Assembly: GCA_946496115.1 (NCBI GenBank)
Contig: CAMMFK010000002.1
Span: 1-41,441, forward strand
Source: an uncultured Clostridium sp.
Lineage (GTDB): Bacteria > Bacillota > Clostridia > TANB77 > CAG-508
Length of the DNA stretch: 41,441 nucleotides
Direction of reading: 5' to 3'
The stretch's first letter is position 1. Each line of letters begins with the position of its first letter. A program made the translations under genes and the position numbers. Under the pieces are notes generated by a model. It searched no databases and was not told the DNA's origin. It worked only from the letters and a program-made list of their open reading frames with translations. This document shows positions 1,308 to 33,703 of the stretch, piece after piece.

Positions 1308-3242
1308 TTGAAAATAGAAAATATAAAAATTAATTCATATGGAAATTTAAAAAATAGAGAAATTAATTTAAAAAAATTGAATATTATTTATGGAAAAAAC
1401 GAAAGTGGAAAATCTACATTATTAAATTTTATAAAAAATACTTTTTATGGAATTTCGAAAAATAAAAATGGAAAAAATATTTCTGATTATGATAAATATT
1501 TGCCATGGGGAGAAAAAGATTTTTCAGGTAAAATACAATATTCACTGGATAATAATTCCAAATATGAAATATACAGAGATTTTAATAAGAAAAATCCAAC
1601 AGTATATAATGACCAATTTGTGGATATTTCTGATGAGTTTAAAATTGACAAAAAGACAGGAAATCAATTTTTTTTAGAGCAGACAAATGTAGATGAGAAC
1701 ACATTTATGTCAACATCTTTGTCAGCGCAAAAGGAAGTAGTAGTAAATAGCACCGAACAAGGCATTTTACTACAAAAGGTTGCAAACCTTGCGGAAAGCG
1801 GTTCGGAAGATGTATCATATAAGAAGGCAATGAACAACATGAACTCTATGTTACTTAATGAGGTGGGAACATCAAATAGTAAGGAAAGGCCTATTAATAT
1901 AGCAGAGAGTAATATTAAAAAATATAGGCTTGACCTAATGACAATAAGTAATGCTAAAGATATTAGGTATGAGATTGAGAAAAATATTAACGATATTAAT
2001 GGAGATTTAAAGGAAGAAATTGAAAAAGAAAAATTATTAAATAGTATAAATAATATAATTTATGTAAATAAAAACGAGAATGAAAAGTTAAAATTTAAGA
2101 ATAATATTTTGGAAGAAAATAATAATAAAATTAAAAAATTGGATAATGAAAAAGATATTTTATTAAATAAAATTAAAAACATTGAAAATAATTTTGATAA
2201 TAATTTAGAAAATAAAAAAATAAATAATAAAAATAAAACAATTAATTTTATTATTTTATTATTTTTATTAATAATTAATATTTTAAATTTTATTTTTATA
2301 AAAAATATTTTCATTAATATTATATTATTTTTATTAATTCCTATTTATATAATTTATTTTTTTAGTAAATTAAATAAAAATAAAAAAATTAAAATTGAAG
2401 AAGAAAATAAATTAAATAAAATTAATTTAGAAAAAGAAGAAATAAAAAAACAAATGAATATTTTAGACGGACAAATTGAATTATTAGAAAAAAATACTGA
2501 AGAAATAAAAAATGAAATTAAAAAAGTAGAAAATGAAGTAAAGAATAAATTGATTGAAGAAAAAAACAATATTATTGAAAACAATAAAAATTATTTTTCT
2601 GAATATTATATTAATGATTTATTTAATTCAAACATTGATTTATTAATTAGTACAAACCAAAGAAAAATAAACGAATTAAATTTACAATTACATAAATTAG
2701 AAATAGATAGAGATAATATTGATCCAAAACTTGAAAAATTGATACATACAGAAGAACTACTAGAAATAGAGCAAGAAAATCTAAAAAAATTGCAAAATAG
2801 AGCAGAAGAAATTAATTTAGCTAAAGTTATTTTGGATGAAGCTTACACTGAAATGAAAAAAAATATTACTCCTAAATTTAATCAAAGCTTATCTAAAAAT
2901 ATAGAAAAAATATCTGATGGAAAATATAAAAATATTATAATTAATGATCAAATAATAGTAGAATTAGACGATGGTAGATATGTTCCTGCAGAAAGTTTAA
3001 GCATAGGTACAATTGAACAAATTTATTTATCTCTTAGACTTGCAATTATGAATGAAATTAGCAAAGAAAAATTACCAGTTATGTTGGATGAAGCTTTTGC
3101 ATATTATGATGACCAAAGATTGGAGGCTGCTCTAGACTTTTTAAGCAAAATTGATAATCAAGTAATTTTATTTACTTGTACAAATAGAGAAAAAGAAATT
3201 CTTAATAAGAATAATATTGATTTTAATTTTATAACTCTGTAA
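1308..3242 (+). CDS. YhaN/SbcC-like SMC-type AAA ATPase with a central membrane hairpin
   Basis: TTG start with RBS aaggag 9 nt upstream. Walker A is GKNESGKST. The middle is long, Lys/Glu/Asn-rich and coiled-coil-like. The C-terminus has the signature-like LSIGTIEQIYLSLRLAI and Walker B VMLDEAF. Two hydrophobic helices (INFIILLFLLIINILNFIF / IFINIILFLLIPIYIIYFF) lie at nt 2241-2364. Confidence 0.75.
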   Translation: MKIENIKINSYGNLKNREINLKKLNIIYGKNESGKSTLLNFIKNTFYGISKNKNGKNISDYDKYLPWGEKDFSGKIQYSLDNNSKYEIYRDFNKKNPTVYNDQFVDISDEFKIDKKTGNQFFLEQTNVDENTFMSTSLSAQKEVVVNSTEQGILLQKVANLAESGSEDVSYKKAMNNMNSMLLNEVGTSNSKERPINIAESNIKKYRLDLMTISNAKDIRYEIEKNINDINGDLKEEIEKEKLLNSINNIIYVNKNENEKLKFKNNILEENNNKIKKLDNEKDILLNKIKNIENNFDNNLENKKINNKNKTINFIILLFLLIINILNFIFIKNIFINIILFLLIPIYIIYFFSKLNKNKKIKIEEENKLNKINLEKEEIKKQMNILDGQIELLEKNTEEIKNEIKKVENEVKNKLIEEKNNIIENNKNYFSEYYINDLFNSNIDLLISTNQRKINELNLQLHKLEIDRDNIDPKLEKLIHTEELLEIEQENLKKLQNRAEEINLAKVILDEAYTEMKKNITPKFNQSLSKNIEKISDGKYKNIIINDQIIVELDDGRYVPAESLSIGTIEQIYLSLRLAIMNEISKEKLPVMLDEAFAYYDDQRLEAALDFLSKIDNQVILFTCTNREKEILNKNNIDFNFITL

Positions 3243-7031: not shown

Positions 7032-9377
7032 ATGGACGAACTATTAAATGAATTAAATCCAAGACAAAAAGAAGCGGTAGAGTCTACAGAAGGACCATGC
7101 TTAGTTATAGCAGGTGCCGGTTCTGGAAAAACAAAAGTGCTTACATATAAAATCAGTTATTTAATGCAAGCAAAGGGTGTAAAACCATGGAATATATTAG
7201 CTATTACATTTACCAATAAAGCAGCAAATGAAATGAAAGAAAGAGTAGAGCGATTAGCAAGTGACGCCATAAATGATATATGGCTTGGAACTTTTCACTC
7301 TATTTGTGTGCGAATACTTAGAAAATTTATAGATAGAATAGGTTTTGATTCTTCATTTGCAATATTTGACTCAACAGACCAAAGAACATTAGTTAAGAAT
7401 TGTATGAAAGAGCTTAACATTGACCCCAAATTATTTACGGACAGATCTATTTTATCTGAAATAAGTAATGCAAAAAATGAAATGTTAACTCCTGAAAAAT
7501 ATGAGGAAAGAGCAAACGGAGATTACAGAAAAGAAATAACTTCAAAAGTTTATTACTTATACCAAAAAAAGCTTAGGGAAAATAATGCTATAGACTTTGA
7601 CGATATTATAAATTACACTATAAATATTTTAACAGATAATCCTGATGTACTAGATTATTATTCTAGTAAATTTAAGTACATATTAGTTGATGAGTATCAA
7701 GATACAAATAAATCTCAATTTATGTTAGTATCTCTTTTGGCTTCTAAGTATGGAAATATTACTGTTGTTGGAGATAGTGACCAATCAATTTATCGTTTTA
7801 GAGGAGCAGATATAACTAATATACTTAATTTCGAAAAAGATTTTCCGGGTGCAAAAATAGTTAAGCTAGAGCAAAATTATAGATGCACTGGAAATATTTT
7901 AAAAGCTGCAAATGCTGTTATTAAGCATAATGAAAACAAATATGAAAAAGTACTTTGGACAGAAAATGATGAAGGCAAGCTTCCTTTTGTATATTGTGGT
8001 GAAGATGAATATGACGAAGGTAGTTTTATAGTTCAAGAAATAAATCATTTAAGAAGAGAAGAATATTACAAATATTCAGATTTTGTGGTTTTATATAGAA
8101 TGAACTCTCAATCAAGAGCAATTGAAGATGTACTTAGAAGAGAAGACATACCATACAAAATTGTTGGAGGTTTAAAATTCTATGAAAGAAAAGAAATTAA
8201 AGATATTATTGCATATTTAAGATTAATTGCAAATCCATCAGATAATCTTTCATTAGAAAGAATAATTAATGAACCTAAAAGGGGTGTAGGAAAAACTAGC
8301 TTAGAAAACATTGAAAAGATTTCGGCAGAAAATGGAATTTCAATGTATCAGGTTATTAAAGAAGCGGATAAATTTTTGCCTAGAATTTATCAAAATACTA
8401 GAGAATTTATAAATGTAATCGAAGAGTTACGTGCAACAGATGTGCCTGTATCAGAACTTATTAAACAAACATTAAATAAAACAGGTTATACTCAAGCTTT
8501 AAAAAATGAAAATACAGTTGAAGCAGAAAGTAGAATTGAAAACTTAGAGGAATTTTTAACTGTTGCTATGGAATTTGAAAAAGAGTCAGCAGATAATAAT
8601 TTAAACGAATTCCTTGAAAGCATTTCGTTATCTAGTGATACAGACAGTTTGGAAGAATCAGATGATATGGTAACATTAATGACTCTTCATAGTGCTAAAG
8701 GTTTGGAATATCCAGTAGTATTCTTGGTTGGTATGGAAGATGGAGTATTTCCAGGACACAAATCAATGGACAACCCAGAAGACATAGAAGAAGAAAGAAG
8801 GCTATTTTATGTAGGTATAACTAGAGCTCAGCATTATTTATATTTAACATTTGCAAGAAAAAGAACAATATTTGGCTCAACGAGTTATAATCCACCATCA
8901 AGATTTTTAAAAGAGATTCCAGCAGATTTACTTGATGGATATGAAGATGCCTTTGCTGAAAAAGAGGAAGAAGACGAATTTGAGGACTCTAAGTATTCAT
9001 GGAGCTATGGCAATAGAGCAAATGGCTATGCGGATAGGTTCGCTTCAAAAGTAGTTTCATATAAGGTGTCAGCAGATAGTTTGAATAATGGAATAAGTTT
9101 TGGAGATAAGTCTCAAACTAATGATGATGCACAGCCAAGCTTCCAATTTAGAACAGCAGAAAGTTTCTTAAATAATTTAAATAAAAAGAAAACATCAAGT
9201 CCAGTTGACTTATCTCAATATAAAGTTGGTCAAAAAGTATTTCACAAAAGATTTGGAGAAGGTACTATTACTAACTTAGAAAGAGAAGAAGATGATATTA
9301 AAGTAGATATAGAGTTTGATAAATTTGGTCATAAAAGATTAATGGCTAAGTTTGCTGGTCTAGAAATTTTAAATTAA
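7032..9377 (+). CDS. pcrA: ATP-dependent DNA helicase PcrA (UvrD/Rep superfamily 1)
   Basis: Walker A AGAGSGKT, DEYQDT, and VGDSDQSIYRFRGA motifs. The conserved PcrA C-terminal tail is present (VGQKVFHKRFGEGTI...FGHKRLMAKFAGLEIL). Confidence 0.95.
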   Translation: MDELLNELNPRQKEAVESTEGPCLVIAGAGSGKTKVLTYKISYLMQAKGVKPWNILAITFTNKAANEMKERVERLASDAINDIWLGTFHSICVRILRKFIDRIGFDSSFAIFDSTDQRTLVKNCMKELNIDPKLFTDRSILSEISNAKNEMLTPEKYEERANGDYRKEITSKVYYLYQKKLRENNAIDFDDIINYTINILTDNPDVLDYYSSKFKYILVDEYQDTNKSQFMLVSLLASKYGNITVVGDSDQSIYRFRGADITNILNFEKDFPGAKIVKLEQNYRCTGNILKAANAVIKHNENKYEKVLWTENDEGKLPFVYCGEDEYDEGSFIVQEINHLRREEYYKYSDFVVLYRMNSQSRAIEDVLRREDIPYKIVGGLKFYERKEIKDIIAYLRLIANPSDNLSLERIINEPKRGVGKTSLENIEKISAENGISMYQVIKEADKFLPRIYQNTREFINVIEELRATDVPVSELIKQTLNKTGYTQALKNENTVEAESRIENLEEFLTVAMEFEKESADNNLNEFLESISLSSDTDSLEESDDMVTLMTLHSAKGLEYPVVFLVGMEDGVFPGHKSMDNPEDIEEERRLFYVGITRAQHYLYLTFARKRTIFGSTSYNPPSRFLKEIPADLLDGYEDAFAEKEEEDEFEDSKYSWSYGNRANGYADRFASKVVSYKVSADSLNNGISFGDKSQTNDDAQPSFQFRTAESFLNNLNKKKTSSPVDLSQYKVGQKVFHKRFGEGTITNLEREEDDIKVDIEFDKFGHKRLMAKFAGLEILN

Positions 9378-9447
9378 AGATTAAAGATAAAAAATAAAAA
9401 ATAATAAATAAACAATAAAAATATGAACAAAATATACAAATAAAAAA

Positions 9448-9592
9448 GGTCACAATATACATTCTCTCCCATTTCACTGCGCGGGTCGCTTCGCTCCAGC
9501 TTGCCCGCTACACTCTGCAGTCCTACTTAGTTATAATCGAAAATGCTCGCGCTGCAACCGTTCGCTGAAATGTCGAGAAGTATATTGTGACC
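9448..9592 (+). repeat. GC-rich long-hairpin intergenic element, copy A (full length)
   Basis: The outer arm ggtcacaatatacattctc pairs with gagaagtatattgtgacc. It is flanked by an A-run and a T-run. The 91-nt core (9483-9573) matches copy B at 88 of 91 positions. It lies between the convergent pcrA and mecA genes. Confidence 0.85.
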
Positions 9593-9627
9593 TTTTTATA
9601 TTATTTTATTAATTTTTAAAATTTAAT

Positions 9628-10242
9628 CTATTTAAAATTCTTTTGACTAGTATAAATAGCATTATGCTTAATTACAGAAGTTCCACGCTCTTTTATTAAC
9701 ATAGCAACAGCTTCTTGACTAGTTAAAAAATTACCAAACTCAGTAATACCAGAATAAAGTTTACCAATATATCTGTAATTTTGATTTATATTTAAACAAA
9801 TTAGAACATATTTACCATTATATTTATAAAGCTCAATTGTTTTGCAAAATTCTCTCAATCTATTAATCTTTTGCTTTTTTAAAAAATTACAAAAATTAAA
9901 AAAATGTTCTATGTCTACAAAACTATAAACCAAGGTATTATCTTTTTGAACAGGAACTTTTAAAGGCTTAACTTTTTTAGAATTTTTAGATTTAGGAATT
10001 AGTTTTGTTATAGTAAATATAAAATCACCATTATACATACTTTTGGCATCAATTCTTATTCTACTATTATCTATATGAAATCCAACTTCATCCTCAGCTT
10101 TATCAAGTATTTCTAAAAAGGATTTACGAGCTTTAGAAGGGTTAGACATAAAATTATCTAAATCGCCGTTACTGCTTTCTAACAATTCATCATTAGATAC
10201 GGTAACTCTTAATTTATATTCACTTAATTTTTCAAACTTCAT
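9628..10242 (-). CDS. mecA: MecA-like adaptor protein (ClpC adaptor / negative regulator of competence family)
   Basis: N-terminus MKFEKLSEYKLRVTVSNDELLE, with the overall MecA layout (N-domain, linker, C-domain) at about 200 aa. Confidence 0.7.
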   Translation of the reverse strand: MKFEKLSEYKLRVTVSNDELLESSNGDLDNFMSNPSKARKSFLEILDKAEDEVGFHIDNSRIRIDAKSMYNGDFIFTITKLIPKSKNSKKVKPLKVPVQKDNTLVYSFVDIEHFFNFCNFLKKQKINRLREFCKTIELYKYNGKYVLICLNINQNYRYIGKLYSGITEFGNFLTSQEAVAMLIKERGTSVIKHNAIYTSQKNFK

Positions 10243-10372
10243 AGAATTTCCTTTCTTGTTATAACAATGGTATTTATGAAATGGTTTTTTATGTATCTAT
10301 TAGTATATCATATGATTCATGCTTTTACAATGTTTTGATAAAAAAATTAAGACAATTTTTCCACAAAATACC

Positions 10373-10401
10373 TTGAAAATTAATGGAAAAAAATATATAA
10401 T
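10373..10401 (+). promoter_or_regulatory. Sigma-A type promoter for the DUF4321-radC-mre operon
   Basis: TTGAAA (10373-10378), 17-nt spacer, TATAAT (10396-10401). Confidence 0.55.
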
Positions 10402-10448
10402 ACAAATGTTAAATTATAAATATCCGTAAGATAAAATGGAGGTAACAT

Positions 10449-10706
10449 ATGGCAACAAGAGATAAAAGTACATTTGTACTAATAATATTTATATTATGTG
10501 GACTTGTTATAGGAGGACTAATTGGAGAGCTGACACAGGGAGTAAGTTGGCTTAGTTGGCTATCATATGGACAAAGTTTTGGATTAACAGAGCCAATTTC
10601 TTTAGACTTAGGAGTTGTAAATTTATCATTTGCAATAATGTTTAATATAAATATTTCTAGTATAATTGGAATAATAATTTCTATATTCATTTATAGAAAA
10701 TTCTAA
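10449..10706 (+). CDS. DUF4321-family small membrane protein
   Basis: 85 aa with two hydrophobic segments (GGLIGELT...FGL...LDLGVVNLSF pattern). RBS tggagg is 6 nt upstream. The position upstream of radC/mreB is typical for sporulating Firmicutes. Confidence 0.65.
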   Translation: MATRDKSTFVLIIFILCGLVIGGLIGELTQGVSWLSWLSYGQSFGLTEPISLDLGVVNLSFAIMFNINISSIIGIIISIFIYRKF

Positions 10707-10743
10707 TAAAAAGGAGTTTTTGGGGGGCAGAAAGGATTTACTT

Positions 10744-11436
10744 ATGCCACTTAAAATGAAACAATTGCCAGAATCTGAAAGACCATATGAAAAATTATTA
10801 ATGTATGGTGCAAAAAAGTTATCAAATGCAGAACTTTTGGCAATAATAATTAAAACAGGAACAAAAGAAGAGACATCAGTAGATATTGCTAACAGAATTT
10901 TATTACTTTCGGAAAATATTAGTGGACTTGCAAGTATTGGAATTGAAACTTTGGAAAAAATTAAAGGTATAGGAAAAGTTAAAGCAATTCAAATTAAGGC
11001 AGTATGTGAGTTAGCTACAAGAATAAATAATCCTATAAACAATCTAAAAACAAAAATAATTAGACCAAGTGATGTTGCCGGTATATTTATGCAAGAACTA
11101 AAAAATGAAAAACATGAAAAGTTAAAACTAATTTTATTAAATTCAAAAAACGAAGTAGTAAAAAATATTGAACTAAAAACAGGATCAATTAATCAAATAT
11201 CTGTAGCTCCAGCTGAAATTTTAAAGGAAGTAATTAAAGAGGAATTAGATAAATTTATACTAATACATAATCATCCAAGTGGAGATTCCACACCAAGCAA
11301 AGCAGATTTAGATTTTACTAAAAAAGTAGAAGAGTGCTCTAAATTATTCAAGTTAAATTTTTTAGATCATATTGTAATAGGAAAAGACAACTATACAAGT
11401 ATTAAAACTATAGAAAATAAAAAAACAATAAAGTAA
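10744..11436 (+). CDS. radC: RadC-family (JAMM-motif) protein
   Basis: LPESERPYEKL N-terminal motif, helix-hairpin-helix region (IKGIGKVKAIQIKA), and JAMM-like HNHPSGDSTPSKADLDFT. I chose the ATG at 10744 (aaagga 7 nt upstream). The track TTG at 10720 and the ATG at 10756 remain possible starts. Confidence 0.85.
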   Translation: MPLKMKQLPESERPYEKLLMYGAKKLSNAELLAIIIKTGTKEETSVDIANRILLLSENISGLASIGIETLEKIKGIGKVKAIQIKAVCELATRINNPINNLKTKIIRPSDVAGIFMQELKNEKHEKLKLILLNSKNEVVKNIELKTGSINQISVAPAEILKEVIKEELDKFILIHNHPSGDSTPSKADLDFTKKVEECSKLFKLNFLDHIVIGKDNYTSIKTIENKKTIK

Positions 11437-11513
11437 TTGAGCATAATCAAAAAGCAAAATTATAAATATCTGCAATTTATTATATAAAACATACAAGAAA
11501 GGAATTTTTAGCA

Positions 11514-12551
11514 ATGAATCTTGATTTATTAAACTTTAATTCAAAAGATATAGGTATGGACCTAGGAACTGCAAATATTTTAATTGCCTTAAAAGGGAAG
11601 GGTATAGTTTTAAGAGAACCATCAGTGGTTGCTTTAGATAAAGTTACTGGTGAAATTGTTGCAACTGGTAAAGAAGCAAGAGAAATGCTTGGAAGAACAC
11701 CAGAAAATATTAAAGCAGTAAGACCTATGCAAGATGGGGTTATAGCAGATTTTACAGCAACAGGTTTAATGCTTAAAAATATGCTTAAAAAGGTTTGCCA
11801 AAAATATAATGCGGGAAAACCAAGAGTAGTAGTTGGAGTTCCATCAGGTATTACAGAAGTTGAAAGAAGAGCCATAGAAGAAGCTTTTTTACAAGCAAAT
11901 GCTAAAGAAGTATATTTAATTCAAGAACCTATGGCAGCTGCTATTGGTGCAGGAATAAATGTAAAAGAGCCTATGGGAAATATGATAGTAGACATTGGTG
12001 GAGGAACTACTGAAGTTGCAGTTATTTCACTTGGAGGAATAGTTGCAAGTAACTCAATAAGAGTTGCAGGAAATGAAATAGATGAAAGTATAGTAGAATA
12101 TTTAAAAAGCCATAAAGGCATAGCGATTGGACAAACAGCAGCAGAAAGCTTAAAAATAGAGCTTGGTTGTGCACTTCCTTTAGTGTCTGAAATTACTAAA
12201 GAAATTAGAGGAAGAGATTTAGATACAGGACTTCCTAAGAATGTAACAGTATCATCTAAAGATATTGAGCAGGCTATGAGAAAACCAATAAATGAAATAT
12301 TAGAAGCAATAATAAATACATTATCTGTTACTCCACCAGAACTTTCAGCTGATATTATCGTAAATGGTATTTATTTGGCAGGTGGTGGAGCACAAATAAG
12401 AAATTTAGATAATTTAATTGCACAAAGAACAGGTGTACAAACATATGTGGCAGATACACCACTTGAATGTGTTGCAATAGGTGCAGGAAAAGTACTAGAA
12501 AACATAGATAATCTAAAAAGCGTATTAATGAATGCAGGAAAGAAAATGTAA
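11514..12551 (+). CDS. mreB: Rod shape-determining actin homologue MreB
   Basis: DIGMDLGTANILI, VVVGVPSGITEVERRA and DIGGGTTEVAVISLGG motifs. Confidence 0.95.
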   Translation: MNLDLLNFNSKDIGMDLGTANILIALKGKGIVLREPSVVALDKVTGEIVATGKEAREMLGRTPENIKAVRPMQDGVIADFTATGLMLKNMLKKVCQKYNAGKPRVVVGVPSGITEVERRAIEEAFLQANAKEVYLIQEPMAAAIGAGINVKEPMGNMIVDIGGGTTEVAVISLGGIVASNSIRVAGNEIDESIVEYLKSHKGIAIGQTAAESLKIELGCALPLVSEITKEIRGRDLDTGLPKNVTVSSKDIEQAMRKPINEILEAIINTLSVTPPELSADIIVNGIYLAGGGAQIRNLDNLIAQRTGVQTYVADTPLECVAIGAGKVLENIDNLKSVLMNAGKKM

Positions 12552-12570
12552 TTAACTTATAATTCATTAC

Positions 12571-12720
12571 AAGCTCAAATATACATTCTTCCACATTTCT
12601 ACTCTTCGGGTCGCTTCGCTCCAGCTTGCCCGCTACACTCTGCAGTCCTACTTAGTTAAAATTTAAAATGCTCGCGCTGCAACCGTTCGCTGAAATGTTC
12701 CAGAACATATATTTGAGCTT
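12571..12720 (+). repeat. GC-rich long-hairpin intergenic element, copy B (full length, intercistronic mreB-mreC)
   Basis: The outer arm aagctcaaatata pairs with catatatttgagctt. The core 12608-12698 is near-identical to copy A, with identical blocks of 51 nt and 34 nt. Confidence 0.85.
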
Positions 12721-12774
12721 ATAAAAAGTTATAGGAACTTTAAAACCTAAATAAACGTAAGGAATGATTATTTA

Positions 12775-13590: not shown

Positions 13591-13642
13591 TTTGATATAT
13601 ATTCTGGAGCTTTTAGTGACCCGAGGCAGAGTAAATATCAAA
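13591..13642 (-). repeat. Reduced (about 50 bp) member of the same element family, copy D (intercistronic mreC-mreD)
   Basis: gagcttttagtgacccgaggcag aligns with copy C gtagcttttagcgacctgaggtag. The outer arms tttgatat / atatcaaa are inverted. The element ends 5 nt before the mreD RBS. Confidence 0.65.
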
Positions 13643-13659
13643 GTTTAAAGGAGATTAAA

Positions 13660-16369: not shown

Positions 16370-16472
16370 CTAATTTTATGGTTGAATAATAAATAAATGA
16401 ATGTTATAATAATTTCAAATTTACAAAAGATAAAAGGAGGTATGAAAAATCAAAATATAGGAGTAATTAAAA

Positions 16473-17087
16473 ATGACTAGATGCATTAATATTTATTTTA
16501 AAAAAGATAGTATTGTACTTAAAATTAAAGAAGATGCAACAACAAATGAGATTTTGAATGAATTACAAGAAAAATTGCCAGATCTTAAAGAATTTTATAA
16601 AGATGAAAAAACACCTATTATGGTTACCGGTAAAATTTTAAAAAGATTCGAAATTGATAGTATTCAAAAACTAATTCAAAATGTTATAAAAGTAAAAGTC
16701 GATTTCGATAGTCCAAAAACATTAGGACTTCATGGCATAAAAAGAACTTTTAGAAAGGATATACAAATATCAGAAACAAAGTTTTATAAAGGTTCTATTA
16801 GATCAGGACAGAAAATGGAATTTGAAGGGAGTATAGTCATAATAGGTGATGTTAATGATGGTGCAGAAGTAATTGCAGAAGACAATATAGCAGTTTTAGG
16901 AAACCTTAGGGGAATGGCACATGCAGGAGCAAAAGGCAATGAAAAAGCGATTATAGCTGCCAGTATAATAAATTCACCACAAATAAGAATAGCTAGTAGA
17001 ATTCTAGAAAGAGATAGAAAAGATATAGAAAGAGAAAGCTATTCATATGCTTATATAAATGACGAAGGGCTAATAGAAATGGAGTAG
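16473..17087 (+). CDS. minC: Septum site-determining protein MinC
   Basis: C-terminal beta-helix motif (IRSGQKMEFEGSIVIIGDVNDGAEVIAEDNIAVLGNLRGMAHAGAKGN). AGGAG lies 9 nt upstream of the ATG. Confidence 0.85.
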   Translation: MTRCINIYFKKDSIVLKIKEDATTNEILNELQEKLPDLKEFYKDEKTPIMVTGKILKRFEIDSIQKLIQNVIKVKVDFDSPKTLGLHGIKRTFRKDIQISETKFYKGSIRSGQKMEFEGSIVIIGDVNDGAEVIAEDNIAVLGNLRGMAHAGAKGNEKAIIAASIINSPQIRIASRILERDRKDIERESYSYAYINDEGLIEME

Positions 17088-17114
17088 TCAATTTAGCAAT
17101 AGCAGTATCAATGC

Positions 17115-17149
17115 GATGTAAAGGAATTTATCCTTTACATCTTCTTTAT
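17115..17149 (+). terminator. Rho-independent terminator ending the mre-pbp2-minC operon
   Basis: An 11-bp stem gatgtaaagga / tcctttacatc, loop attta, followed by ttctttat. Confidence 0.75.
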
Positions 17150-17245
17150 ATAATATAAATAATATAAGCAGTATTAAAAGGTCATCTGTGTGTAATTTAA
17201 ATCCGAAAATATCAATTACACCATCACCATCAACTGGGAACAAAT

Positions 17246-17860
17246 TCAATTCTTATCACCACCAAACAAGTCAAAAGCTTGTGTCATTTTTCCCATCTTA
17301 ATAAGTTTAATATATTCATCTACTTTTTCTTTTTTTTCATTACGCAAATAAGGCTTTAGCGACATTAATAACTTAGACATGTCATCATCGTTATTAAAAG
17401 ATTTCATCTTAGACATTACTCCTTGAAGTTTCATCATTGTTTCTATGTCTATATTAGGAAAATCGGAATTTATATTGTTATTGTTCTGATTAGAATTATC
17501 AGTGTCATAATTATTGCTATTTCTTTGAGAGTAAGTAGAAGAATATTTATTATAATTCTGGCTTTCTTTAGAGTGAGAACTGTTTAATCTCACATTATCT
17601 ACGAAGTTAGTTTGCCCTTTGGAATTATTGTAATTATTAGAGTTATTGAGATTGCTTTGATTACTGTAACTATTAGAATTATTATGGTTGAAACGATTAC
17701 TATAGTTATTAGTACCATTGTGGTTGTTTTGATTATTCATACTATTTGTTCCATTACTCTGCATATTTTTTACAAGATTTTTTAGTTCATCAGGAATCTG
17801 ATTATTGTTAATCATTTCCTGAGCCTTTTTTATCATATTAGCCATATCATTATCATTCAT
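17246..17860 (-). CDS. Asn-rich low-complexity hypothetical protein
   Basis: The start was moved to the ATG at 17860 (GGAGG 7 nt upstream); the track TTG at 17881 has no RBS. The central region of about 110 aa is dominated by N/S/Y/Q. The ends are structured (MANMIKKAQEMINNNQIPDELKNL... and ...MSKLLMSLKPYLRNEKKEKVDEYIKLIKMGKM). Confidence 0.6.
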   Translation of the reverse strand: MNDNDMANMIKKAQEMINNNQIPDELKNLVKNMQSNGTNSMNNQNNHNGTNNYSNRFNHNNSNSYSNQSNLNNSNNYNNSKGQTNFVDNVRLNSSHSKESQNYNKYSSTYSQRNSNNYDTDNSNQNNNNINSDFPNIDIETMMKLQGVMSKMKSFNNDDDMSKLLMSLKPYLRNEKKEKVDEYIKLIKMGKMTQAFDLFGGDKN

Positions 17861-18180
17861 ACCTAAGCCTCCATTATACAAATATTACAATCAAAATTAC
17901 TTACGCATACTTAAATCTAACTATAATATTATATGCGAGATGGTATAAATTGTTACAACTTTGTAAAGAAAATTTAATAAAAAAGCTGAAAAAATATTTT
18001 CCGTATGAAAAGATATTAAAAGCTATTTTTAGAATTGAAAATCACTATTGTCAAGAAAAATAATAAAGGTTAATATAAGTTAGAATTATATTCAGCACAT
18101 ATTAAAAATATACTTTTAGAATAAAAGACTTTTAGAAGTATAAAATCAAACAAAAAAATTCAAAAAATGTGCTGAAAATC

Positions 18181-18209
18181 TTGAAAAATAGCAAAAAAAA
18201 AGGTATAAT
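18181..18209 (+). promoter_or_regulatory. Sigma-A type promoter of the giant surface-protein operon, with A9 in the spacer
   Basis: TTGAAA (18181-18186), 17-nt spacer containing aaaaaaaaa (18193-18201), TATAAT (18204-18209). Confidence 0.6.
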
Positions 18210-18243
18210 TAAGTTATGTTAATTTTAAAATAGGAGGGTTACT

Positions 18244-21200
18244 ATGCAAAAAACAATAAGCAAAGTAATAGCTACTATGCTAGTTGCAATTTTAGTAGGT
18301 TTTAATTGTATTACAACTGGCGTATATGCAGCGAACATTATTGAACAAAATAATGAAACATCAGAAGAAAACATTACTTTTGATGTAAAACTAGGAAATG
18401 AAGAAACACACGAAGGATATGAGTACACAGCAGATATAGACTCTACTGACACTAACTTATATCTTAATATTGGTGTGAAAAACACAGGATACTTAAAGAA
18501 TATATTAATAAACCTAGAAAATAACAACTACAAATTCGACTATGAAAAAGTCAATGATAATAGAATTAAAAACATAACTGAAAATTCTATAGAGCTAAAT
18601 CAAATAAACACAAGTGAAACAGTTGAATTAGCTATACCAATTATACCAAATAAAGATGATAAAGTTTCGGCAAATGAATTAGGCAAGGATAGCACAGTCA
18701 AATTTAAAGCAACATACATAAATGAAGATAACAAAGAACGTGAAATTGAAAAAGATATGACTGTTCATATTAACTGGATGGCATCAGATGAAAATTTAGT
18801 TGGGGAACTAAGTCAAGAAGTAATTAGATATTTAAACTATGATGGTAAAACAATGCTTAGCCTATTACTTAGTGATGAATTAAAAGATTCAAAACTACCA
18901 TTAAGCTCAAAACAAATACAAATTAATGTTCCAACAATAAATGACTTAAAACCTTCAGAAGTTATAGTAACCGCAATAGATACACTAGCTACAAATGGTG
19001 AGGCAGACGGAGTAAACTTTACACAAGATAGCTATGCATATGACAGCGAATCAGGAACACTTACAATAAATGTTGAAAATACAGTAGATGAAAATGGAAT
19101 GGTTTCATGGGTAAAAGGACAAGCAGACAAATTTGTCGTTACATATATATACGAAACAAATACTAATGAAGAAGCAATAACAATACACACAGAAACAACA
19201 ACAAATACAACATTATTAAATGGAACAACTGTATCTACAAGCATGGAACAAAAAGATTATAATATAGATTCAAAAATAGGAGATATTGCAACAGTAAATG
19301 TTCTACCACAAACAGCCACATTAAACAAAGGATACATGTACTCAAATAAAGACAAAAATGAAAACCAAATAGAAACAGAATTTGGAGTACAATACAAATT
19401 AAATGTAGGTTTAGCAGATGCATTAAATGAAGTAACTATTAAAGAAAATGGAGACTTTCTAGGAGATATAAATGCAAGTGCCTACATTTACGATAGAAAA
19501 GTTACAGTATCATCAGAAGAACTTGTAAAAGTACTTGGAGAAGAAGGAAAAATAGATGTTCTTAAATCTGATGGAACAGTTATAGGAACATTAAATAAAG
19601 ATACAGTAGAATTAGAAATAAACAATTCAAATATATCTTTTGTTGCAAGTAAACCTCAAACAGAAGGCGAAATAAATTTAAATGTAACAAAAGCTATTAA
19701 GGGAAATCTAGACTATAGTAAAGAACAGATTGCAAGCTTTAAAACATTAACTTCAAGAGTTCAAATAAATGCAGAAGCAAAAGGAGAAATAACATTAGAT
19801 GAACCAACTTCAAAAGTAAATGTGCAATTAAGCAATACAAACTTATCTACAGTAGTAGAAAACGAAAATGTTGTAATGAATATTACATTAGAAAGAGATG
19901 ATGTTACAGACAACTTATTTGCAAATCCAGAATTAGACATAGTATTTCCTCAAGAGATAACAGGTATTGAAATAAAAGATGCAACACTTTTATATGATGA
20001 ACAATTAGTAAGTGGAGATTCTGTAATAGATGGAAATACAATAAAATTAAAATTTACAGGAAATCAAACAGAGTATAGTTCACAATCAATGGCAAAAGGA
20101 ACAGTTATAAGATTAGTATTAGACTTAACATTAAATAACTTGAGCCCAAGCAAGCAAACAAATATAGTTTTATCATATACAAATGATAATGATGAAATAA
20201 TAGCAAATGCATCAAATAGCGGAGTTTCAACATTATCAGAAAATGAAAATACAAATACAGTAGAAGTACCAGTAAATGTAGTTGCACCAACAGGATTTGT
20301 AACAACACAAAGTATAACAGGATATAATGGAGATGAAACTGTTACAGCACAAGAAAGTGAAGCTATAGGCAATTTACCAGTATTAGATAAAGAAAAAACT
20401 GCTACAATTTCTGGAGTAGTTGTAAACAATTTAGGCAAAGATGCCGAAGGATTAAAAGTACTTGGCAGAATACCTTTCAAGGGAAATAAAGGAGTAGACG
20501 GAAGTATCGACTTAGGAACAACATTTGATACAACTTTAGTAGGTGCTCTTTCAGTAGAAGGAATAGATGCAACAGTTTATTACTCAGCAAATGGAGAAGC
20601 TACAGCAAACATAGATGACAGTAATAATGGTTGGCAAACAGAATATACTGCAGACGCAAAATCTTATATGATAGTTGCAAATAGTGCAGTAACAAATGCT
20701 ACAACATTTAACTTTAATTATAATATAACAATACCTGCAAACGTAGATTATGCAAATACTGCAAAAGCAAGCTATGGAGTATATTACAACAATGATGCTC
20801 AAGAAGGAACAAGTCAAAATGTAGTATTGGCTAGCAATGTTGGTGTTAAAACAGATGATGTGCCAGAGATAAATACAATCATACAAGTTACAGAAAGCTA
20901 TAGCGGAGAAGAAATAACAAATGGTGGAAGTATTAATGCGGGAAAATATCTTAATGCTAAAATTACTGTAAAAAATTCTGGAGATGAAGAGGCAAGAAAT
21001 GTTAAATTAAAAGTCAATATACCTCTTGCTTACTCAGAAATCAAACAAGAAACTATAGACAATAGTACATATACATATTTTGAAAATGATGGTTCAGAAG
21101 AATTTGATTTAGGTAACATTGCAGCAGGAAGCGAAGCTTCAGCAGAAATAAATCTATTCCTAGGAGTAGGCGTTATGCTAAATGAAGATATATCATTAAG

Positions 21201-23106
21201 AGCAGAAACTACAGCCGACAACCTAGAAGGTACTAGTGTTGGAGTACTTGAACTTAAAGCGACAGATGGAACACTTAGCCTAGAATTAGGTTCAAATGAA
21301 GAAAATAGTAAATTAAGTGCAGGTAAGGAATTTAGTAATAGCTTAGCTATAAAAAATTCCTCAGATAATGAGCAAAGAAATGTAAAAATAACCATAAACT
21401 TACCTTCTGAACTTGAATATGTATCTGGAAGTGATGGTTTAAACTATAATTCAAGCAATAATACCATTACATATTCGAAAGATTCAATAGAAGATTGGGG
21501 AACGCAAAAACTTGAATTTACATTAAAAGCAAAAGAAGTAAACGAATATGAAAAGACAATCAGTATGCAAGCAACTGCCACATTTGATACTGTAACAATA
21601 TCAGAAGAGTCAGGAGAAAGCGTTCAATCAAATACAGAATTATCAAATACTGTAAACTTCTATGTTGGAAATATTAGAGCAGACGTAAGATTTACAAGTA
21701 ATATAGAAGGTAGTATGCTTGATACAGATACATTAGAATACTACATAGAAACAACAAATAATTCGTCAAATAGTGTTTTAGTAAACATATCAGATATATT
21801 ACCAAATGCTCTATATTGTAGAGAGTACACAGTACAAAATGGTCAAAATACTAATACAGTAGAGAAAAATACAAATTCAGTTGGTATAGAGGAAACAGTT
21901 AATCCAGGAGATACATTAAGGTTAACAATAGTGGCTAGAGCATATACTCTAACTACAGGATCATCTGTAGAAATAGAAAACTTACCAGCAATTACAGTAG
22001 ATGGTCAAAATATACAAGTCTCATCAATAAAACATACTATAAATGGTACAGGAATTTATAATCCAGATGACGAAGATGATGGTCACAATACAGTAGATGG
22101 AACATATAGAATAAGTGGTGTGGCTTGGATTGATAGCAACAAAAATGGACGTAAAGAAAGTACAGAGCAAAGACTATCAGGAATATCAGTTACACTTTAT
22201 GATCAAAATGGATATATAGTAAAAGATGCTAATGGTACAGAAATAAAAGCCACAACAGATAATGAAGGAAAATATGCATTAGCTAATGTACCTGTAGGAG
22301 AATACACAGCAGTTGCAGAATACAATACAGCGGATTATATATTAACAACATATCAATTAGAGGGTATTCCAAGTAGCGAAAATTCTGATTTCGTAGAGGC
22401 AACACTAGATGGTAAACCAGTAGCTGCAACAAATATAATAAGAATTACAAATGCTAATATGTATAATACAGATATAGGTTTGCAAGAAAGAGAACAATTT
22501 GACTTAAAACTTGACAAAATAGTATCAAGAGTAACAGTTACAAATACAAGATTAGACCCAAGAACATATGAATATAAATCAAACTTTGCAATGGTAAGCT
22601 TATTAAATACATATGTTGAATACTCAACAGTATTAATAGAATACAACTTAACTATTACAAATGAAGGTAAAGTAGCTGGATATGCAGAAGAAATAATAGA
22701 TTATATGCCAGAAGGAATGGCATTTAGCTCAGACCTAAATCCAAACTGGTATGTAGGATCTGATGGAAATCTATATACAGCATCTTTAGCAAATACACTA
22801 ATTCAACCAGGTGAAAGCAGAACAATAACTTTAGTATTGTTAAGAAGAATGACAGGTGAAAACACAGGAACAATAGTAAATACAGCAGAAATATCTCAAA
22901 CATATAATGATTATGGATTACAAGATGGAGACTCTACACCAGGAAATAGACAAGATGGAGAAGATGATATATCAAGTGCTACAACATTGTTAGCAATGAA
23001 TACTGGTAGAGAAGTAGCTTCATTTATGGGAATTACACTAGGAGTAATAGCAATGATTGGCTTAGCAGTGTTCTTAATTAAAAAATACGTTATAAAAAGA
23101 ATATAA
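18244..23106 (+). CDS. Giant cell-surface protein 1 (1620 aa): DUF11/CARDB-like repeats, SdrD-B/Cna-B-like domain, sorting-signal-like C-terminus
   Basis: Signal peptide ends ...TTGVYA. Repeats such as KITVKNSGDEEARNVKLKVNIP, LAIKNSSDNEQRNVKITINLP and YNLTITNEGKVAGYAEEIIDYMPEGM are present. The SdrD-B-like module GVAWIDSNKNGRKE...TDNEGKYALANVPVGEY lies at about nt 22103-22360. The tail is AMNTG (22993-23007) followed by a hydrophobic helix and KKYVIKRI. Confidence 0.8.
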   Translation: MQKTISKVIATMLVAILVGFNCITTGVYAANIIEQNNETSEENITFDVKLGNEETHEGYEYTADIDSTDTNLYLNIGVKNTGYLKNILINLENNNYKFDYEKVNDNRIKNITENSIELNQINTSETVELAIPIIPNKDDKVSANELGKDSTVKFKATYINEDNKEREIEKDMTVHINWMASDENLVGELSQEVIRYLNYDGKTMLSLLLSDELKDSKLPLSSKQIQINVPTINDLKPSEVIVTAIDTLATNGEADGVNFTQDSYAYDSESGTLTINVENTVDENGMVSWVKGQADKFVVTYIYETNTNEEAITIHTETTTNTTLLNGTTVSTSMEQKDYNIDSKIGDIATVNVLPQTATLNKGYMYSNKDKNENQIETEFGVQYKLNVGLADALNEVTIKENGDFLGDINASAYIYDRKVTVSSEELVKVLGEEGKIDVLKSDGTVIGTLNKDTVELEINNSNISFVASKPQTEGEINLNVTKAIKGNLDYSKEQIASFKTLTSRVQINAEAKGEITLDEPTSKVNVQLSNTNLSTVVENENVVMNITLERDDVTDNLFANPELDIVFPQEITGIEIKDATLLYDEQLVSGDSVIDGNTIKLKFTGNQTEYSSQSMAKGTVIRLVLDLTLNNLSPSKQTNIVLSYTNDNDEIIANASNSGVSTLSENENTNTVEVPVNVVAPTGFVTTQSITGYNGDETVTAQESEAIGNLPVLDKEKTATISGVVVNNLGKDAEGLKVLGRIPFKGNKGVDGSIDLGTTFDTTLVGALSVEGIDATVYYSANGEATANIDDSNNGWQTEYTADAKSYMIVANSAVTNATTFNFNYNITIPANVDYANTAKASYGVYYNNDAQEGTSQNVVLASNVGVKTDDVPEINTIIQVTESYSGEEITNGGSINAGKYLNAKITVKNSGDEEARNVKLKVNIPLAYSEIKQETIDNSTYTYFENDGSEEFDLGNIAAGSEASAEINLFLGVGVMLNEDISLRAETTADNLEGTSVGVLELKATDGTLSLELGSNEENSKLSAGKEFSNSLAIKNSSDNEQRNVKITINLPSELEYVSGSDGLNYNSSNNTITYSKDSIEDWGTQKLEFTLKAKEVNEYEKTISMQATATFDTVTISEESGESVQSNTELSNTVNFYVGNIRADVRFTSNIEGSMLDTDTLEYYIETTNNSSNSVLVNISDILPNALYCREYTVQNGQNTNTVEKNTNSVGIEETVNPGDTLRLTIVARAYTLTTGSSVEIENLPAITVDGQNIQVSSIKHTINGTGIYNPDDEDDGHNTVDGTYRISGVAWIDSNKNGRKESTEQRLSGISVTLYDQNGYIVKDANGTEIKATTDNEGKYALANVPVGEYTAVAEYNTADYILTTYQLEGIPSSENSDFVEATLDGKPVAATNIIRITNANMYNTDIGLQEREQFDLKLDKIVSRVTVTNTRLDPRTYEYKSNFAMVSLLNTYVEYSTVLIEYNLTITNEGKVAGYAEEIIDYMPEGMAFSSDLNPNWYVGSDGNLYTASLANTLIQPGESRTITLVLLRRMTGENTGTIVNTAEISQTYNDYGLQDGDSTPGNRQDGEDDISSATTLLAMNTGREVASFMGITLGVIAMIGLAVFLIKKYVIKRI

Positions 23107-23120
23107 GAAAGGAGGAAAAC

Positions 23121-26100
23121 ATGAGACATAAAACTAAACATTTTACACTAAAGAAAATAATTGCTATTATTATAATAATAGCAACCTTAATTTCAGCAGG
23201 TATATCTACATTTTACTTGTTATTTAGTGGAGAAGATGTACAATCTGTAGAAGGAACATTTGCTACAGCTGGTGGATCAGTTACATTAGGAAGTTTGGGT
23301 GGTTGTAATACAACAGAAATGTATACATTAAATGCAAATTACTTTTGTGCAAATCCAAATTATGCTTCAAGTAGAAGACTAAGAAACTCAAAACAAGTAG
23401 ATAAGTCCCCAGTTGCTCCTGATGGAGGATATAGTGCAACAGAGCAGGAAACTACATATACTCAACTAAGAAGTGGACAGCTTCCTCAAACTGTTGCCTA
23501 TGCTAAATGGCAGGGAGCAAGAGGAGCAACTATGCAAAATATTGTATGGGCGTCTTGGAATTGGGATGATGGCTATGAATTGCTAACAGGACATGATACA
23601 ACAAGTAATAATGTAAATTCAGGAGGAATTGCTGGTAGATCTGAAAGATTTGCAAACTTTGTAAATTATGTTTTAACAGATGGAACTACATTTACTTTAT
23701 CTGCAACTCCTACTACAGATGAGTCAGACGATTTAAAAGTAATGATTGATCAAGCCAATACAACATATACTGTTGGACCTTATGTTATAGACTTTGCTAA
23801 TAGTTCAAGTACTACTCGTGATGGGCTTATGACTTTAGGCGATTTAGTATATGATGAGATAGTGAATGATTATGATGGAAAGTTTATTTGGGGAGACATA
23901 GGAGCCAATATAGTAACTCCTGATGGAAACATTAGTACTCCATCAAATATAAAGGTATTAGATTCGTCTGGAAGTGAAATAAGCAGTAAGTTTCCTAAAT
24001 TTGGACAAGAATTTTATATACAATATACTTCATCGGATAAAATAACAAAAATAGTTCCAAGTTTAGCAATAAATTTTGTTACAAAAATAACAGGTACAGG
24101 AACTACTTACCAATCATCACAATGTGAGTTTAGAATACATGATGATGCAACTATGCAATACTTAACAGCGGCTATGCGCGAATATAAATATGCAAAAAAA
24201 TATAATATAGAAGATGGTTTGTTTACAAATGTAAATTCTTTAAATATTACAGGAGAAACTACAGATGTCGCTTCAATTTTTTCAGATATTAAGACAAGCA
24301 TAGCAACAAATATAAAAAAATATGCAGAAGAAGGTGATTATCCTGTAGGCTCGGTAGAAGTAGATATCGGAGAAGAAGGCTCTGGACATATACTTGGTAT
24401 TTTCAGTGATGAAGACAATACATTTCATAAAGGTAATATTTCTATAGGAACACAATTGGTAAAAGTAGATGAGAAAAAGGCTTATTTATTAAATAATAAT
24501 GATGGAACTCCTACTTGGTGGGATGATAATATACCATCTGGATTTCTTGATAATCCTCAGAATTCAATAGACGATGAGAGAGCATATACAATTTATAAAG
24601 CTTATGGGCAAGTTAGATCAGATGATGGAACAATACTAAACGATTTGGATTCAGAAGATGATGGCGAAGGACAGCCTACAGAAGAATATTGCCCTAATGC
24701 TGATGCAGTTTTTAACCAATTATATCCTGGTATACCTTCTGAACCATCAACTTCAGCATCCGATTTAGCAAAAAACTGGGCTAAATATAATTTAAGATAT
24801 GCTATAAAATTTGCTGCGGAATATCCAGTAGTTAAAGAAGAGAACGAATACTTACAACCTGCTGTAACTGTATCTGTATCAAAACCATCTGAACCTGGAA
24901 TGCCACCAATTCCAACAATACCATCAACTCCTGGAACTCCTTATCCACCAGTAACACCTGGAATAACTACATCAACTGGATCTACAAAAGTAATTTTACC
25001 AGGCAAATCAATTAATATGTATATAGGTGGATATGTATGGGAAGACCTAGGTTTCACAAAAGAGAGTGTTGAAAACGGTAGGTATGACAGTGGAAATGAA
25101 AGTAGATTTGGAGGTATACAAGTCACTCTGCATGATGCAAATACTGACCAGGTGGTTGCTTCGACGACAACTGACTCGAATGGACAGTATGGATTCAAAG
25201 ATTTACATCCAATGCATAAATACTGTGTAGAATTTACTTATAATGGACAAGTATATCAGCATACATACTATAATAACAATTTATCGGGAGGTTATTCGAC
25301 TGCGACAGAGAAATCAAATGACAGGACAGATTTAAATACTAGATTTGAAACTATAGATTCAACACCAAATAATTATTTAGCTGATGATAGACAAAATAAA
25401 TCATATGGTATGTATGTACGAATTCCAGCAAGCGATGGAACATATTTGTCATATACTCCAACAGTATATACAGACGGACAAAATACAGGTGCATTAAGAT
25501 TCTGTGATGTATTAGAAATATTTAGAAAAGCGAATGTAAATGGAAAAAATATTGATTCTTCAAGTCAAGATACTATGGAAAGTACATATAATACATTATC
25601 GACAGACAGAACATATGCAAGTTCAGAAGGTAGTTTCAAAGAGGAATTAAGAAATATTGCAAGTAGTCAAGGAAAAACTATATCAGAACCTGAATTAAAT
25701 AGTTTATGGAACTATATAAATCATTGTATGATAAGTTCATATACAATAAGATATCCAGAGGAAGATAGATTTGTATTAGAAGATGTAGATAATCCTCAAG
25801 AAGGAAATGTTATAGGATATGAATACTTATATACACCTTCAAGAGATCAAAGTAGAAATGTAGACTTTGGTTTAAATGCAAGAGATACTGCAGATTTAGC
25901 AATACAAAAAGACGTATATAAAGCAACTGTAAGAGTAAATGGTAAAACTCAAACATATATGTATAACAACAAAGACGCAGATATTGATGATGATGGAAAC
26001 TGGAATATAACAGTAAGGCAAGCAGATTACTTATACAATGGTGGAACAAGATACACTAGAGAGATACGTAAATCTGAATACTTATATGATGGAACTATCT

Positions 26101-29126: not shown

Positions 29127-29159
29127 AAAACTAGGACACTATATGGTGTCCTAGTTTTT
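29127..29159 (+). terminator. Strong rho-independent terminator after the adhesin operon
   Basis: aaaactaggacac / gtgtcctagtttt stem, loop tatatg, then a T5 run. Confidence 0.85.
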
Positions 29160-29190
29160 GGCATAGTTACAGTTCATTAATTTTTGTAAA

Positions 29191-29339: not shown

Positions 29340-29372
29340 TGATATACTTTTAAATTAGTTGTAAACTGTAAA

Positions 29373-33660: not shown

Positions 33661-33670
33661 GAGGTGTATT

Positions 33671-33703
33671 GCCTCAGGTCACTAAATGTTTCAAAATATA
33701 TAC
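33671..33703 (+). repeat. Fragment (3' arm only) of the element family, copy E
   Basis: gcctcaggtcactaaatgtttcaaaatatatac aligns with the copy A/B 3' arm gcaaccgttcgctgaaatgt...atatatt. It is also the reverse complement of the copy C/D left arm (ttagtgacctgaggc). Confidence 0.5.

Follow-up and report, generated by a model that had tools for sequence, protein, structure and literature searches.

Long-hairpin intergenic repeats in an uncultured Clostridium probably form a lineage-restricted family of non-autonomous foldback DNA elements

A 41,441-nucleotide stretch of DNA from an uncultured Clostridium sp. (contig CAMMFK010000002.1 of assembly GCA_946496115.1, positions 1 to 41,441; hereafter the window) carries long intergenic hairpins with 43–50% GC in a background of 28.9% GC, and two of these, copy A (9448–9592, plus strand) and copy B (12571–12720, plus strand), are nearly identical. 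What kind of element are they: an RNA, a host signal, an invertible switch, or a repeat that is propagated as DNA? The answer that we prefer, with a probability of about 60%, is that they belong to a family of non-autonomous foldback repeats, intergenic and confined to one lineage, similar to miniature inverted-repeat transposable elements (MITEs) or to REPINs (hairpin-forming doublets of repetitive extragenic palindromes, REPs), and that upkeep and rearrangement of the family take place at the DNA level. On this reading the elements are not RNA genes, and phase switching is unproven.

We searched the window with an nhmmer profile built from the copies and found three full elements with E values of 1e-36 to 1e-48, as well as two weak partial matches near 13595–13631 and 33670–33708, which on inspection are internally deleted remnants (D and E). 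A preliminary description of the window, made from its letters alone, had counted five or six occurrences; a count of five stands, but two of the five are only fragments. It had also reported a 91-nt core common to A and B (9483–9573 and 12608–12698), which indeed differs at three positions (9534, 9538 and 9539) and includes a 51-nt block with 29 G/C that is exact at 9483 and 12608. Copy A (E = 1e-47) consists of a left arm (9448–9475), a GC-rich core (9476–9566) and a right arm (9567–9592), and lies between the convergent genes pcrA (7032–9377, plus strand) and mecA (9628–10242, minus strand). Copy B (E = 1e-43) is likewise an inverted repeat, with arms at 12571–12599 and 12692–12720 around a core at 12600–12691; it occupies the mreB–mreC spacer, and imperfect complementarity reaches 12558–12733. 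The third full element, copy C (29193–29340, minus strand; E = 2e-36), aligns with A and B and is inverted relative to both. It represents a diverged subfamily whose core holds a perfect 16-bp palindrome, CGCTTTCGCGAAAGCG, and its orientation is the same in a second strain (L028; such numbers are our handles for fetched loci).

The proposition that the elements always stand downstream of a plus-strand gene does not hold: the genes on either side of A converge, and C is upstream of spoIIE and comes after a terminator that is distinct from it. This terminator is a conventional intrinsic one, AAAACTAGGACAC-TATATG-GTGTCCTAGTTTTTGG at 29127–29158, at the end of a gene for a 1995-aa surface protein and just upstream of C; C is therefore unnecessary as the terminator of that gene. 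Between the two lies a candidate tail of copy C (29160–29192, minus strand), with the motif AAATTAA..TGTAAC.AT, which is common to loci iv and vi (described below) and is beyond the hairpin. The alignment of iv with vi continues for about 48 nt past the hairpin, and that of C with vi also continues past it, so that a tail some 45 nt long, outside the hairpin, is possible in the iv/vi/C subfamily, the evidence for this being weak since the region is AT-rich.

The family is dispersed, and its copies are not confined to the window by local duplication, the outcome that would have refuted the preliminary description: we identified 15 intergenic loci in at least three to four related uncultured gut Clostridium species, all of them outside open reading frames (ORFs). 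A census with the central motif GTCCTANTTAGTTA..AAAATGC gives 7 sites in 4 metagenome-assembled genomes in GTDB (uncultured Clostridium or Clostridia) and one metagenome contig, which suggested a low-copy family; that idea was dropped because most copies do not have the motif and the census undercounts. Locus L007, for example, holds a second copy with the same arms and a different core. Further copies were found by walking homologues of MecA, MreC and Dus. In related strains a 21-kb region around dus contains four to six copies, drawn from seven sites that we refer to by the genes on either side: i (clpC and HAD), ii (dus and ydcC), iii (MucBP and HD), iv (HD and PNP), v (SMC and aroA), vi (PNP and SMC) and vii (PemK and MucBP). 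Others are located between rsgA and rpe (L005), between pgk and tpiA, and after tpiA (the last two in L007). A composite copy is seen at L007 1391–1548, with the left side (arm and flank) of locus ii, after dus, joined to the right arm and flank of a copy downstream of tpiA; it arose either by recombination of two copies, as a genuine rearrangement, or by chimeric assembly of the metagenome at the repeat.

Where it could be sampled, the density is about one copy per 5–14 kb, and by extrapolation the number in a whole genome is probably in the hundreds. No copy is present in the roughly 20 kb sampled from each of three syntenic sister species, whose MreC is 93%, 92% and 87% identical, and the family is restricted to a small clade; homologues of the genes at the window edges yielded only contigs of about 2 kb on record. 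No described relative was found, in agreement with the earlier failure to recognise the sequence. A cmscan-type comparison with Rfam matches no described RNA family (for the window and five related loci, no match reaches the gathering score, and relaxing the threshold to E ≤ 10 around A and C adds nothing but noise), BLAST against the plasmids of PLSDB and the phages of INPHARED gives no match, and two pattern scans of IMG/VR return nothing or chance matches only. The element sequence was not found in the searchable literature, nor was a relevant report of a Clostridium MITE or REPIN. ARAGORN predicts no tRNA or tmRNA genes, as expected from the reported lack of resemblance to tRNA.

All copies, about 120–160 bp in length, are built alike: a GC-rich core that varies is enclosed by a pair of inverted arms, each about 28 nt long. 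The left arm reads CAATATA(C/T)ATTCT, 4 nt, CATTTC, and the right arm GAAATG, 4 or 5 nt, AGAA(C/G/T)(A/T)TATATTG; the arms are conserved, and the cores fall into at least three subfamilies. The hairpins are stable, with folding energies of −37 to −60 kcal/mol among the copies and of −55 (plus strand) and −65 kcal/mol (minus strand) for A over 9440–9600. Relative to dinucleotide shuffles, A has folding z scores of −7.0 (plus strand) and −7.7 (minus strand), bearing out the long hairpin drawn for it on paper. The lack of an ORF is also upheld, in that the elements lie outside all listed ORFs and the centre of subfamily 1 has stop codons in three frames on one strand, in the motif TAACTAA(G/A)TAG on the G-rich strand (9523–9533 and 12648–12658, minus strand; 29251–29261, plus strand). 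This motif, which to the eye seems not to be shared by other subfamilies, is the only asymmetric motif that we noted inside the segment. Neither a small ORF nor a promoter of the sigma-70 type was found within the core: a sigma-70 consensus scan, which does not cover other sigma factors, shows no promoter in the cores of A or B, consistent with the earlier statement that no promoter is obvious, and the scan finds no asymmetric terminator in the core.

The pairing between the two sides of the element is maintained even where the sequence is not. Beyond the arms the next 4–11 nt vary by locus and yet are complementary within each locus; the outer 11 nt of the two flanks give 7.9 of 11 reverse-complement matches within a locus and 4.3 of 11 across loci (permutation p<1e-5). 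We counted pairs in an alignment of 12 copies from eight loci, using 500 shuffles, and as a control we slid the partner by 1–3 columns. Paired cells make up 87.9% of the alignment versus 78.3% in the shuffles, none of the 500 shuffles reaching the observed value, and the covariation score is 0.241 compared with 0.089 in the shuffles and at most 0.089 in the slid-partner controls. In the outer stem (columns 5–9 paired with 169–173) changes are always two-sided, with no one-sided change, and the pairs are Watson-Crick only, with no G-U. This is what copying at the DNA level or a palindromic target would produce, and not drift of an RNA helix. The central stem is compensatory as well, with CTGCAG/CTGCA replaced by CTGCGG/CCGCA in L003 and by GGTAG/CTACC in copy C. 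An instance outside the conserved element is found in L044 (about 9315–9345), where the two flanks of locus ii are perfect reverse complements, the left one reading ATAGTATTATATGAAAAAAACGC, and other strains (L037, about 10975–11000) lack the TGA in it; it looks like a palindrome-perfecting conversion.

The suggestion that the elements might be a structured RNA family is not sustained. The strand expected in mRNA is the C-rich one for B, ii, L005 and E and the G-rich one for C, D and L007b, and A can present either, so that orientation is random with respect to transcription; the element also flips between strains, and the covariation of its stem is purely Watson-Crick, with no G-U intermediates.

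Flipping is clearest at locus A. The window orientation is present in the window and in L003, L010–L012, L014, L015 and L024–L026, and the element is inverted between identical flanks in L001, L006, L008, L009 and L013. Orientation is incongruent with the flank haplotypes on both sides: the 705-nt right flank of the inverted L008 is 100% identical to that of the window, the left flank of the inverted L001 is 99.8% identical, and L024 and L025, which have the window orientation, share a left haplotype with the inverted L013. Because orientation does not track flank haplotype, several independent flips must have occurred at A in a clade whose members differ by about 2% at most. Dimorphism is also seen at loci i, iii and v, in independent combinations (+,+,+; +,−,−; and −,+,−), and these span SPAdes, MEGAHIT, Canu-type and hifiasm-type contigs, including long-read assemblies. 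An assembly artefact is unlikely, because the perfect repeats are only 13–21 bp long. Each sample shows one orientation, as seen in assemblies and not in reads.

Such behaviour could point to programmed invertons, i.e. a genome-wide family flipped by a trans-acting site-specific recombinase that places neighbouring genes under phase-variable control. Of some nine loci with good sampling, A, i, iii and v, four in all, are inverted-repeat-bounded segments found in both orientations among strains that differ by 0–2%, the incongruence at A implies repeated flips, and the arms, with a half-site on each side of an AT-rich TATA centre, generally resemble the core site of a recombinase. The inversion endpoints argue otherwise. 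At A and v they fall in a perfect repeat of 17–19 bp made up of arm and flank, but those of locus i are found further out, in another inverted repeat of 21 bp, GGGACGGTCCTTTTCGTAAAA, which is unrelated to the arms, and the 16-nt spacers flip along with the element; the crossover site is therefore not fixed. Copy B has the same orientation in all eight assemblies and locus ii is never flipped in more than 15, and the perfect repeat at B is 13 bp compared with 18–19 bp at A, which fits an effect of homology length. As the endpoints at i are outside the arms and B, with its 13-bp repeat, is unflipped, generic recombination or template switching is favoured over a site-specific invertase acting on the arms. 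The blank consensus scans of the core for a promoter or asymmetric terminator, the failure to find a recombinase gene in the 41-kb window or the loci of the roughly 21-kb dus region, and neighbours that are housekeeping rather than surface or variable genes further lower the standing of programmed invertons, which we hold to be very unlikely. The 21-nt sequence GGGACGGTCCTTTTCGTAAAA forms the inverted pair around copy i in L037–L047 (about 916–1155); in L048 (1720–1790), which has neither copy i nor the HAD gene, it is present as two direct copies and one diverged inverted copy.

A more specific form of recombinase-based explanation takes the arms as Xer/dif-like sites and the elements as miniature dif modules, like the pdif modules of Acinetobacter, moved or inverted by XerCD. 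The Firmicute dif site, ACTTCCTATAATATATATTATGTAAACT, has an 11-6-11 plan (PMC3025954, supplement), and an L005 arm, ATAATACACAA-TATATA-TTCTTTCGCAT, fits this plan, with 18 of 28 positions matching in a hand alignment and an identical central TATATA. The similarity is however mostly AT-rich and palindromic, the diagnostic TTATGT(A/T)AA of the XerD arm is not conserved across copies, the spacing is off by 1 nt in the A/ii/v subfamily, and the locus i inversion takes place outside the arms. With a resemblance this weak and the locus i endpoints in contradiction, we rejected the dif/Xer identity, which we regard as hardly credible.

Absence of the element at orthologous sites tells a related story of DNA rearrangement. 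Copy B is gone from L009, which is 99.4% identical to the window, leaving a 171-bp gap that takes in 16–20 nt beyond the hairpin itself, with TAA microhomology at its borders. Locus ii is filled in L053–L056 and empty in L057–L059, which are 99.5% identical strains; the junction of the empty site lies in two T-runs, and the C-terminus of Dus changes from ...SYFSLFN to ...SFFHI, destroying a conserved YF motif. Because the Dus C-terminus is altered, the empty allele is a derived 186-bp deletion, and the idea that an inverted duplication of the flank had been made upon insertion at ii was abandoned for this reason. The same kind of empty ii allele (DYFHII) is present in L047 and L048, and the loss at locus iv is bounded by ATTA microhomology. 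Locus vi, which is occupied in one strain only, differs by replacement of a whole segment. Every within-clade empty site with a readable junction (B in L009; ii in L047 and L057–L059; iv) is thus a microhomology deletion. Relatives do have the empty sites that the preliminary description had suggested looking for, but no clean new insertion that would define the ends and a target duplication was found among them.

Partial copies complete this picture. Remnant D (13591–13643, minus strand; nhmmer E = 0.02–0.03), in the mreC–mreD spacer, retains one arm and about 13 nt of core, with the other arm cut down to ATATCAAA, leaving a short hairpin; sister species have no such remnant, and their spacers are 19–51 nt long. 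Remnant E (33664–33709, plus strand; E = 0.04–0.07) follows a WG-repeat gene (32134–33660), consists only of a right arm and the adjoining core, and is also present in L028. Together with a solo arm in L047 and L048, these two remnants show decay by internal deletion. At locus iii, L047 has a plain terminator, AAAAAAAGCCACAATATGCTGTGGCTTTTTT, with a stem similar to the outer arm that the filled allele has there (AAAAGCCCCAATATAC...ATATATTGGGGCTTT), and this terminator is either the target hairpin or the residue left after deletion of the interior.

The relationship to terminators requires separate consideration, since the elements could be cis-acting RNA or DNA signals of the host, i.e. large intrinsic terminators or mRNA-stabilising or insulating hairpins, with a function like that of REP/BIME sequences, under host selection, their repeat nature being secondary. 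The sequence form of a bidirectional intrinsic terminator (A-tract, stem and T-tract) is found in A (AAAAAAGG..CCTTTTT), with an A-tract at 9442–9447 that lengthens the base of the stem and a T-tract at 9593–9597 after the right arm, and also in ii and iii, and copy i has a T-tract on the downstream side only; loops the size of the element are beyond what a terminator scan can score. Elements A and iii are located exactly where relatives have bidirectional terminators, a plain one being present instead of the element at the A site in three sister species and another at locus iii. The compensatory changes that maintain the stems and the great stability of the hairpins would also suit a host signal. 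Yet B, v, L005 and L007b have no T-tract and are inside operons, where termination would be harmful; strains without B or without ii exist that are otherwise 99.4–99.5% identical; 30-nt terminators suffice at the same sites in sister species; a terminator needs neither conserved 28-nt arms nor subfamily cores; and the covarying pairs show no G-U intermediates. On balance a role as host signal first and repeat second is unlikely.

A further argument for that alternative comes from the conservation of orthologous copies, and it weighs against our preferred reading of a foldback repeat family together with several other observations. Orthologous copies are better conserved than their surroundings, including flanking genes, which would not be expected of inert selfish DNA: between species, A is 96.9% identical and its flanks 81–87%; v is 99.3% identical and its flanks 92.5% (88% for the whole locus); and i is 97.1% identical, with flanks at 93–98%. 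Such conservation would reflect either host-level function and constraint or homogenisation by gene conversion. At 12599–12607 of copy B the window has a clustered multi-base change, CTACTCTTCGGG, where copy A and the B copies of other strains (L025 9799–9943; L006 6206–6350) have CACTGCGCGGG, a clustering that points to conversion of one copy by another or to mutation by template switching. The G-rich strand folds better by 6–17 kcal/mol in every copy and the G-T positions in the arms are conserved, which would fit a single-stranded functional form, judging from predicted folds. No locus has a direct target-site duplication, only microhomologies of 2–4 nt and varying length or replaced segments, no unambiguous new insertion was seen, the replacement at vi being of unreadable direction, and no transposase or recombinase was found in the window or the roughly 21-kb dus region apart from a truncated PDDEXK_2 ORF. 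For these reasons mobility is inferred from dispersion alone. Across about 600 kb of fetched loci no pair of arms surrounds a larger segment, and no gene for a REP-associated tyrosine transposase (RAYT; Y1 HUH) was seen.

The one candidate for a neighbouring transposase, that truncated ORF at 36849–37454, was set aside, because it is flanked by repeats unrelated to the element. It encodes 201 aa of a PD-(D/E)XK 'transposase' (PDDEXK_2, Rpn-like), and the direct repeat around it, GTCAAAAGGGA...CTCCTG.TTGAC.CAA at 36506–36549 and 37493–37560, is found in no other fetched locus. A separate insertion, just left of copy ii at 10990–11089 in L039, L041, L042 and L043, is a different GC-rich segment of 100 nt with three small hairpins (GTGGCTTCGCCAC, CGAGCTTTGCTCG and GGAAAAATCTTCGATTTTTCC) and an 8-bp direct repeat, TATTATAA, on its flanks; from its sequence it looks like a classical MITE with a target-site duplication.

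A foldback family of the kind we favour would have spread by a transposition-like process, driven by an enzyme with its gene at another location and with the arms or the hairpin as its recognition target. The family may have inserted into palindromic or terminator-like sites, or the arms may have been made complementary later by template switching. Once in place, the body inverts recurrently between whichever inverted repeats flank the element, and both inversions and deletions probably arise from the general instability of a hairpin or cruciform (inverted-repeat recombination or template switching during replication) with no dedicated invertase. Copies are lost when the DNA between short direct repeats at the hairpin base is deleted, and remnants such as D and E are what is left. 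Copies A, ii and iii, with their A- and T-tracts, may act as bidirectional intrinsic terminators, and copies inside operons, such as B, would form mRNA hairpins at most. A bolder proposal, distinctly unlikely in our judgement, is that this is hairpin-based mobile or regulatory DNA of a novel kind that inserts into, or generates, palindromic or terminator hairpins and is under purifying selection at orthologous sites; if actively flipped, the elements would constitute hundreds of invertible cruciform-forming terminators or insulators, with an enzyme reading the 28-nt arms on the G-rich strand.

The likeness to REP, bacterial interspersed mosaic element (BIME) or MITE-like repeats drawn in the preliminary description thus survives in part, the elements being dispersed hairpin-forming intergenic repeats to which the MITE label applies only partially, with neither a direct target duplication nor a parent transposase found. 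We compared them with REPINs, MITEs, small inversions and invertons as these are known generally. As with REPINs and BIMEs, the elements are strictly extragenic and of about 100–150 bp, with a doublet of conserved inverted units that encloses a less conserved spacer and folds as a single long, imperfect hairpin; both kinds are found in operons and at the 3' ends of genes, persist vertically at orthologous sites and have no target-site duplication. They share no sequence similarity, however, and REPINs are mobilised by RAYTs in Proteobacteria, whereas the host here is a Gram-positive Clostridium. The GC layout is also reversed relative to REP, with AT-rich arms and a GC-rich centre, and unlike REPINs the present elements have locus-specific outer stems and invert recurrently. 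To our knowledge recurrent inversion has not been reported for REPINs.

Among MITEs, the Correia/NEMIS elements of Neisseria, RUP and BOX of S. pneumoniae, and bcr1 of the Bacillus cereus group are likewise small, non-coding, intergenic and able to form stable hairpins, with terminal inverted repeats of about 26–30 nt, subfamilies and decayed copies, some of them acting as terminators or affecting mRNA. The elements described here are similarly below 300 bp, non-coding and present in multiple dispersed copies with conserved terminal inverted repeats. Those MITEs differ in having defined direct target duplications (TA or TTTAT) and a known or suspected parent insertion sequence, whereas no fixed-length direct duplication accompanies our elements, their flanks are inverted complements rather than direct repeats, and no parent element is known. 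The small hairpin-associated inversions of plastid genomes and of bacterial quasi-palindromes, attributed to template switching, show the same recurrent homoplastic flips in close relatives with no dedicated recombinase, arms that stay perfectly complementary, and deletions between short direct repeats at the base; they are however a mutational process and not a family of elements, and here that process acts on a dispersed, sequence-conserved repeat. Invertons such as the Mpi regulon of B. fragilis and the RecV switches of C. difficile are similar in size (100–200 bp), in their inverted repeats of 13–21 bp and in occurring in both orientations, and a single recombinase may serve several related switches. 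They part company with our elements in the promoter and recombinase, neither found here, in the fixed crossover site and in the housekeeping nature of the neighbours seen here.

Intergenic palindromic repeats are well studied in Proteobacteria (REP, BIME and REPIN), Neisseria and streptococci, and we know of no described family of this type in Clostridia. The orthologous loci, in filled, flipped, deleted and decayed states, provide a natural series on how a long hairpin behaves in a bacterial chromosome, and the series shows recurrent inversion between short repeats, Watson-Crick-only upkeep of the arms, loss through microhomology, and replacement of ordinary terminators at some sites. If the constraint on orthologous copies is real, then the elements have a function yet to be found.

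There is also a practical consequence, in that the repeats create spurious "structural variants" between strains and could be miscalled as phase-variable invertons. Contig ends are observed at the element (L009, L010 and L015): two Logan unitigs stop 18 nt inside A, at the point from which A matches copies ii and v exactly, and a MEGAHIT contig, L015, stops in the core of A. The family probably breaks short-read assemblies.

The genes of the window are otherwise Clostridium-type housekeeping genes (sbcCD, a prfB-like gene, pcrA, mecA, radC, mreBCD, a penicillin-binding protein gene, minC, spoIIE, acpS and tatD), along with two genes for giant surface proteins. Identity to other strains is 99.0–99.4% up to position 16324 and then falls, across 16381–23293, to 86.6–87% (L024–L026) or 93.7% (L027); the drop covers minC, an ORF at 17246–17881 and the first giant surface-protein gene, and the pattern suggests a recombined or hypervariable surface-protein locus. 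Positions 2001–3000, within an SbcC-like ORF at 1308–3242, have 14.7% GC and are rich in low-complexity AAT/AAA repeats, and this ORF matches AAA_27 and the SbcC Walker-B region at its ends only.

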